A DNA stretch of 64,000 nucleotides from Escherichia coli (GTDB lineage: Bacteria; Pseudomonadota; Gammaproteobacteria; Enterobacterales; Enterobacteriaceae): assembly GCF_003334255.1 (NCBI RefSeq), contig NZ_QOWU01000001.1; one strand, written 5' to 3'. Positions 11,186 through 12,693 of the stretch are shown here, in pieces (position 1 is the first letter of the stretch; each line of letters starts with the position of its first letter). Both the position numbers and the translations under genes were made by a program. The notes beneath the pieces are model-generated. The model was given only the letters and a program-made list of their open reading frames with translations. It made no database searches and had not been told where the DNA came from.

Positions 11186-12693
11186 TTATTGTTCTACGGC
11201 CATCAGACGTCGGTATTCATCCCACGCATAGAGGTCGGTCATACCGCTGATATAATCCTGCAGCAGGCGGCAACGGTAATAATATTCCCATAGCGGAAAC
11301 TCAGGAGAATCTGACGGTAATTTACTGACAGCCTCGACATAGGCCAGCCGATGGCGCGTCGAGAGTTTGTGGAATAAGCGCGATTCAATAGGGAAACGTT
11401 TCACCCGTTCTTTTTCTACCAGTTCAGTAAAGTCTGATAACGACAGGCTTAATAAAGGACGATAAATCTCTAATAATCCGCTAATGACCCGATAGCCCTG
11501 CAATTCAAGCTGCTCGACATCTGGATGGCTAAACACATGTTTTACAGCGACATTTTTATATAGCTTAAGAAGATCGCTGCATTCGCTGGCATCTTCCAAT
11601 AATGCATGATTAAACGTTCCGGCGAAAATCGCAGGCAGATTATCAATAAATCGTTGTGCCGCGTAGGGTACCAGTTTATTTAGGGTGTTTACCCGTAAAT
11701 ACATAAAAAACTGATCTTCCGTACTGCGGCTTAAACTATTTGAGCGTGATTTTTCCCAGGCATTTTCAACCACCAGCGAAAAGAGCGAACCTTTCTCATG
11801 CTGGCCCCACGCTTCGTGCAAATGATGATAAAGCTGCTCAACGGTAAATATACCGCATCTTCAAGGTCTGCCACACAATAGGAGATGTCGTCGGCAGCTT
11901 CCATAATCCACGTTAATGGAAAACGACTGTAAAGCGCCAAATTAAGTTCTTTACGCAACCGGGCAATATAGGCTTCTTCAGAAAGATAATAACCCGGCTT
12001 TTTCATTAAATAGTGATGTGTCTCAGGCGTTTCGCCACGCCACCACGCCGGACGGGTATATTTTAAAATACCGCCAACCTGTGCCCAGGTGAGATTCATC
12101 CGCATCAATGTATGCACCAGGCGAATGCCTTGTGCATTCCCCTCAAAATGACATAAGTCCTGACGAATCTTGCGCCGCAGCTCGTTAAGCGGTTCTTCCC
12201 CGTCCCGTAAACGTAGTGCCGCCACGCTGCAGCGATCGTCAGTCAGAGGCTGGCTTTCGGCATCTTCCGGGTGCAAACGTTGGCGAAACCAGTCATTTAT
12301 CGCCGCTTCGCCAAAATGACCAAACGGCGGATTGCCGATATCGTGCATCAGGCATGACATCTCAACAATGCTTTCAAAGGGACCGGTCAGTTCATCCAGG
12401 CCGTATGCTTCCAGTAATTTAAGCTCTTTCAGACGGCTTAAAATTTCTTTGGCGATGTAGCGCCCCACCTGCTGGACTTCCATCGAGTGGGTAAGACGCG
12501 TGCGCACGGCGGCATTGCGCTCCAGTGGAAAAACCTGGGTCTTTTGTTGCAGACGACGAATTGCCGGAGAGTTGATGATACGCCCGCGATCGCTCTCGAA
12601 GATCCGCAGGATCTCATGTTCGGTTTTAACGCCCTGCGGTGAACGGTAACGACGATGCCAGTTTATTTTTTTTCGGAAATCAATCTGTGCCAT
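11186..12693 (-). pseudogene. dgt: dGTP triphosphohydrolase gene disrupted by a frameshift (N-terminal and C-terminal parts in different frames)
   Basis: ORF 11731..12693 ([21 protein letters not shown]...ADLEDAV then a 32-codon out-of-frame tail) and ORF 11186..11821 (...[15 protein letters not shown]...[23 protein letters not shown]) together cover Dgt in two frames; locus is 1508 nt versus 1518 nt expected for a 505-aa protein. Confidence 0.85.

Follow-up and report, generated by a model that had tools for sequence, protein, structure and literature searches.

The 64,000-nucleotide stretch of Escherichia coli DNA analysed here (the window) contains the locus of dgt, the gene for the dGTP triphosphohydrolase Dgt (b0160; PDB 4X9E, 4XDS and 6OI7; NCBIfam NF003429). 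Its chromosomal place between mtnN and degP is conserved, as in E. coli generally, and the HD motif of the enzyme (H69/H117/D118/D268) is likewise shared with the characterised protein. Unlike E. coli Dgt, however, the reading frame in the window is broken after residue 281, with residues 282-284 deleted and residues 285-505 separated from the N-terminal polypeptide, whereas an intact allele matches PDB 4X9E across residues 1-505. The positions of the two resulting reading frames and of the neighbouring features are collected in Table 1.

An earlier note on this DNA had described a frame running intact from MAQIDF to DLEDAV and then through unrelated codons to a stop at 11731, with the authentic C-terminus continuing in another frame just past a TGA. 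Both parts of that description are borne out by the open reading frames (12693..11731 for the former; open from 11860, after the TGA at 11863..11861, for the latter), and the length of 1508 nt given for a locus that needs 1518 nt agrees with the reference comparison. The out-of-frame tail, put at 32 codons, actually comprises 39. Since the mtnN-dgt promoter region is unchanged, dgt is presumably still transcribed, and its state in the window is likely that of a transcribed pseudogene.

Table 1. Positions of dgt, its reading frames and its neighbours in the window
Feature	Position	Strand	Description
mtnN	12777..13475	plus	dgt neighbour
mtnN-dgt intergenic (promoter) region	12694..12776		identical in Symbioflor strain G1/2 and K-12
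Whole dgt locus (pseudogene)	12693..11186	minus	1508 nt from ATG to native TAA; intact gene 1518 nt
First ORF	12693..11731	minus	320 aa: Dgt 1-281 plus 39-residue out-of-frame tail; TAA 11733..11731
Deletion junction	11850..11852	minus	GCGGT/ATATTT (between 11852 and 11851) or GCGGTA/TATTT (between 11851 and 11850)
-1 frame	11860..11186	minus	native Dgt 285-505 (IFTVEQ...MAVEQ); opens after TGA 11863..11861; stop 11188..11186
Zone with both frames open	11860..11731	minus	130 nt
Candidate restart codon TTG, -1 frame	11821	minus	211 aa
Candidate restart codon GTG, -1 frame	11773	minus	195 aa
Candidate restart codon ATG, -1 frame	11704	minus	172 aa
degP	11056..9632	minus	dgt neighbour

The 10-bp deletion

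Aligned to its best complete-genome match, strain 300709, the 1701-bp dgt region differs solely by a clean 10-bp gap. This agrees with the earlier proposal that the loss of about 10 bp near 11850/11851 has put dgt out of frame. The missing bases are AGAGAAAAGA, corresponding to CDS nt 843-852, and shifting the gap rightwards by one base gives the equivalent placement GAGAAAAGAA (nt 844-853); where the reference has ...GATGCGGT AGAGAAAAGA ATATTTACC..., the window has ...GATGCGGT ATATTTACC.... The bases previously proposed, a GAAAAACGTA-like sequence, are not the ones that were lost. On the K-12 chromosome (NC_000913.3), the deletion corresponds to positions 180079-180088 when counted from the first base of dgt (179237), and to 180080-180089 as the alignment places it. 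It removes the codons for E282, K283 and R284 together with one additional base, and the frame is broken after V281; the protein sequence given in the earlier note, ...DLEDAV-EKR-IFTVEQ..., reads exactly so in the reference, and EKR is the part lost. Alignments to 300709, to G1/2 and to K-12 MG1655 all contain this single clean gap, with no second indel within dgt.

Relative to K-12, dgt carries one further SNP, at 11511. This position falls in the codon for residue 398, which is Q in 300709 and R in K-12; the window has the same base as 300709 and G1/2, and so encodes Q398. Within the silent C-terminal frame, Q398 is, by this comparison, an ordinary polymorphism and not a sign of additional pseudogene decay.

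Regarding the origin of the deletion, a pair of flanking GTA triplets had been suggested, but none is present, and the only microhomology at the flanks is a single base (A). Repeat-mediated slippage between GTA repeats is thus rejected on the basis of the reference sequence, and an AGA...AGA repeat can also be discarded as the source, because it would remove 7 bp instead of 10. The lesion would have arisen as a one-off deletion inside a purine-rich tract, with 1 bp of microhomology.

Occurrence and lineage of the allele

Across the full 64 kb, the window differs from Symbioflor strain G1/2 by seven SNPs and by the dgt indel as the sole indel, and from K-12 MG1655 by twelve SNPs, the dgt indel and one 1-bp intergenic indel. 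Apart from dgt, all window CDSs with a G1/2 annotation are intact, and an exact match to the window occurs in none of 5,426 complete genomes. Judged by these comparisons, the window evidently comes from a cleanly assembled K-12-like strain that the complete-genome collection does not include. An origin from a laboratory strain was rejected in view of the differences from MG1655 and G1/2 and the lack of an exact match.

Several of the differences outside dgt may be recorded in their own right. At 42918, in panB (plus strand), the window has G where K-12 and G1/2 both have T, a change that corresponds to PanB I197S and is apparently lineage-specific. The gene for the Yad fimbrial usher, htrE (plus strand), carries three nonsynonymous differences from G1/2 within 120 bp, at 38348, 38415 and 38467 (R615S, T638A and W655L, respectively). 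The one at 38467 (W655L) alone separates the window from K-12 as well, 38348 and 38415 being shared polymorphisms. Two intergenic positions have lineage-specific G-to-A changes relative to K-12 and G1/2, namely 31189, between sfsA and dksA and upstream of dksA, and 7779, between yaeI and yaeH. In the glnD-map intergenic region, at 3278, MG1655 has an extra G (NC_000913.3 188662) that is missing from both the window and G1/2. As the window contains just four lineage-specific SNPs, a mutational signature is not readable from it.

Of the 5,426 complete RefSeq E. coli genomes, 5,422 gave a match to a 100-bp query centred on the deletion junction, and the junction itself was found in none of these 5,422, the highest identity being 90.9%. 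This ceiling is the value expected from a 10-nt gap, which implies that no matching complete genome carries the deletion. The 10 bases are present in all 5,422 matching genomes, which sets aside the possibility, raised earlier, of a split at this point in the reference gene itself. A search for the 36-nt junction in JGI metagenome contigs likewise returned zero matches, indicating that the allele is rare.

It is nevertheless represented in other public data. The exact 320-aa product is deposited as CAM2788586.1 and CUJ86495.1, both named 'dGTPase', and at least 23 public contigs encode it, drawn from several independent datasets that include the NCBI assembly GCA_965136505.1, the ENA metagenome assembly ERZ19634436 and five Logan SRA-run assemblies. 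All seven contigs that were fetched share an identical junction, and four of them are 100% identical to the window across 2.6-21 kb. Two others (L007 and L008) carry the dgt deletion without the window SNP at 7779, so the deletion is older than this SNP and some diversity exists inside the clade. Flanking SNP differences of this kind also indicate that the contigs do not stem from one re-sequenced clone.

One fetched contig is more divergent. L011 (Logan SRR31098083_57, 1-7495; window 17742..10248) has the same junction along with 13 SNPs in 7.5 kb, and its haplotype is absent from complete E. coli genomes. A three-way alignment assigns all 13 variants to alleles of the F8704-2 lineage, which lie in short patches on a window-like backbone, a pattern consistent with recombination or with a mixed sample that gave rise to a chimeric contig. 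Although a partly different haplotype could in principle reflect a second origin of the deletion, an independent origin was rejected for L011 because its variants (13/13) are F8704-2 alleles set in patches.

Given the presence of the product on at least 23 contigs, the same junction in 7/7 of those fetched and the lack of any other indel relative to G1/2, the deletion can be regarded as a genuine lineage-specific allele. On these sequence comparisons, it is very probably a vertically inherited dgt loss-of-function allele of a small K-12-like E. coli clade. Between the two options previously offered, a strain-specific lesion or a sequencing/assembly error, the lesion holds, as one that marks a lineage, and the error does not.

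Predicted consequences for Dgt

The deletion would shift the frame after V281 and yield a product in which 39 nonsense residues follow 281 native ones, with the C-terminal 221 residues gone. The 320-aa ORF retains the metal ligands of the HD motif (H69/H117/D118/D268), the catalytic residues H126 and E129, the phosphate-binding residues N186, K211, Y212 and K232, and, in addition, Q53, V54, Y272 and D276; the roles of the metal, catalytic and guanine-binding residues have been described previously (PMC6511015). Missing from the 320-aa product, and coded only in the -1 frame, are the guanine-recognition residues F391, E400, R433 and R442. In crystal structures with bound dGTP, F391 stacks against the guanine, to which E400, R433 and R442 are hydrogen-bonded, R433 and R442 entering the active site from the adjacent monomer of the hexamer (PMC6511015). 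R436 and F437, which form the A/E monomer interface (PMC9478638), also fall within the lost part. The metal ligands and catalytic dyad would hence stay, while the guanine contacts made by F391, by E400 and, in trans, by R433/R442 would go, and, judging from the structure papers, the product would be without dGTPase activity. With 221 of 505 residues lost, including those for guanine recognition and the interface, it is very unlikely that the fragment would fold into the hexamer or bind dGTP.

The family profile leads to the same division of the protein. NF003429 matches the first ORF over profile positions 1-277 (residues 1-281) with 528.9 bits, above the 405-bit cut-off, and the C-terminal frame over positions 281-500 with 342.7 bits, below it, whereas the intact 300709 allele is matched over positions 1-500 with 896 bits. 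No single polypeptide of the locus spans the whole 500-position profile above the cut-off. Since the two frames constitute complementary halves of NF003429, the split is not a chance pattern.

Dgt deficiency of the strain, as predicted in the earlier note, is thus upheld as a sequence-based expectation, though the N-terminal fragment of about 290 aa envisaged there has a native part of 281 residues. In laboratory dgt deletion mutants, dGTP rises approximately twofold and the cells are mild mutators (PMC9478638), and by analogy with those mutants the same outcome would be expected for the window allele: the strain is predicted to be Dgt-null, with about twofold more dGTP, and to be a mild base-substitution mutator. 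Overproduction of Dgt in optA1 strains restricts T7 phage without gene 1.2 (PMC9478638), and the Dgt activity responsible for this restriction in the overproducers would also be missing from cells carrying the deletion. The allele differs from the laboratory deletions in being natural, occurring in wild or clinical sequence data, and in possibly being expressed as a 320-aa N-terminal fragment. The view obtained here is that of the 64-kb window, and a second dGTPase, for example a defence-island paralogue, may be encoded elsewhere in the genome.

Other dgt lesions, alternative explanations and significance

Natural interruptions of dgt are also present outside this clade. In Shigella sonnei CP044191.1 (L015, 4836-5602), dgt is interrupted by IS1, with its insA/insB ORFs, and the target duplication is a 10-bp sequence, GACCTTGAAG, at CDS nt 826-835 (about 11868..11859 in the window), 8 nt upstream of the 10-bp deletion. 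The S. sonnei pseudogene therefore resembles the window allele in being a natural inactivation at almost the same codon, followed by the same 211-aa C-terminal ORF that lies downstream of the deletion; this ORF is found on 684 public contigs under the name Shigella sonnei. It differs in that an IS insertion is responsible there and a small deletion here, and it arose independently in another lineage, with 14 SNPs in the S. sonnei dgt relative to the reference used. Two complete E. coli genomes also have a disrupted dgt: AR216.2b carries IS903B near CDS nt 1392 and E2 carries ISVsa5 near nt 768, and both genes are called partial pseudogenes by PGAP. No description of these natural alleles (the deletion, the S. 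sonnei IS1 insertion and the IS903B and ISVsa5 disruptions) was found in the literature searched. Taken together, the IS1, IS903B and ISVsa5 disruptions indicate that dgt loss is tolerated in nature.

Whether such losses have been adaptive rather than neutral is a separate matter. Inactivation of dgt might be selected in some niches, for example through a higher dGTP supply, raised mutability or relief from a cost of Dgt, with the region around nt 826-853 as a recurrent target, and both the independent disruptions (S. sonnei IS1 at nt 826-835; IS903B and ISVsa5 near nt 1392 and nt 768, respectively) and the presence on 684 contigs of the 211-aa ORF, which bears the collection name Shigella sonnei, are in line with such a scenario. 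However, IS-disrupted dgt was seen in only 2 of the best 30 of 5,425 matching genomes, the deletion belongs to a small, nearly clonal clade, and the IS sites are spread along the gene. Shigella, moreover, gathers IS pseudogenes across its whole genome. Adaptive loss is on balance improbable, and the closeness of the S. sonnei IS1 insertion to the deletion is probably a coincidence. A general lesion hotspot in dgt was also considered and rejected, because the IS903B and ISVsa5 sites (about nt 1392 and nt 768) lie scattered. It is slightly less probable still that dgt loss, counted over four independent lesions, is both recurrent and selected in E. coli and Shigella, or that the 281-residue HD fragment has residual or dominant activity. 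If selected loss were true, it would mean that there are natural Dgt-null lineages with permanently changed dGTP pools, mutation spectra and phage interactions.

Even less support can be given to the idea that the locus still provides a functional enzyme, whether by -1 frameshifting or transcriptional slippage or by reassembly of N- and C-terminal fragments. The two halves remain undamaged open frames, the promoter region is unaltered, and re-initiation at the ATG at 11704, 27 nt past the stop of the first ORF, is conceivable as a source of the 172-aa fragment, an ORF that is indeed predicted by gene callers. Nonetheless, the 130-nt overlap zone (11860..11731) lacks an X_XXY_YYZ heptamer and its homopolymers do not exceed A5; with no recoding signal present, rescue by recoding was rejected. 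As in programmed -1 frameshift genes such as dnaX and IS1 insAB', two overlapping frames encode one protein's worth of sequence; unlike in those genes, the split in dgt has no slippery heptamer, no stimulatory element was identified, and conservation is absent, with 5,422 genomes intact, the opposite of what characterises programmed recoding. No convincing ribosome-binding site precedes any of the three candidate restart codons, and the TTG and GTG in particular are without an evident Shine-Dalgarno sequence. Restart products would omit residues 282-333 or more, and an assembly of two fragments based on the ATG restart would itself miss residues 282-333. A working Dgt from this locus is accordingly very hard to envisage.

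Least probable of all is a sequencing or assembly artefact in which dgt is really intact and 10 bases were dropped: the absence of the deletion from the 5,422 matching complete RefSeq genomes and the empty JGI metagenome scan for the 36-nt junction would suit such an error, but the lesion is neither confined to one assembly nor accompanied by nearby indel errors, the same junction recurs in seven contigs across projects and assemblers (NCBI assembly, megahit metagenome and Logan unitig), the product is found on 23 contigs altogether, the window has no other indel relative to G1/2 in 64 kb and so does not come from an indel-prone assembly, and a 10-bp loss away from a homopolymer is atypical of platform errors.

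As a null allele, the deletion is ordinary: the gene is dispensable and well characterised, and the allele already figures in public databases under an incorrect name. It raises no new biological question, and its practical value is modest. The dgt locus in this lineage merits annotation as a pseudogene, whereas public records label the 320-aa fragment 'dGTPase', and the 36-nt junction, found in none of 5,422 complete genomes and nowhere in the JGI metagenome collection, provides a clean lineage marker. Together with the S. sonnei IS1 insertion and the two other IS-disrupted alleles, the deletion indicates that Dgt is dispensable in nature, and the isolates of the clade, as natural dgt knockouts, could be used to test the effects of Dgt loss on dGTP and mutability in a wild background.
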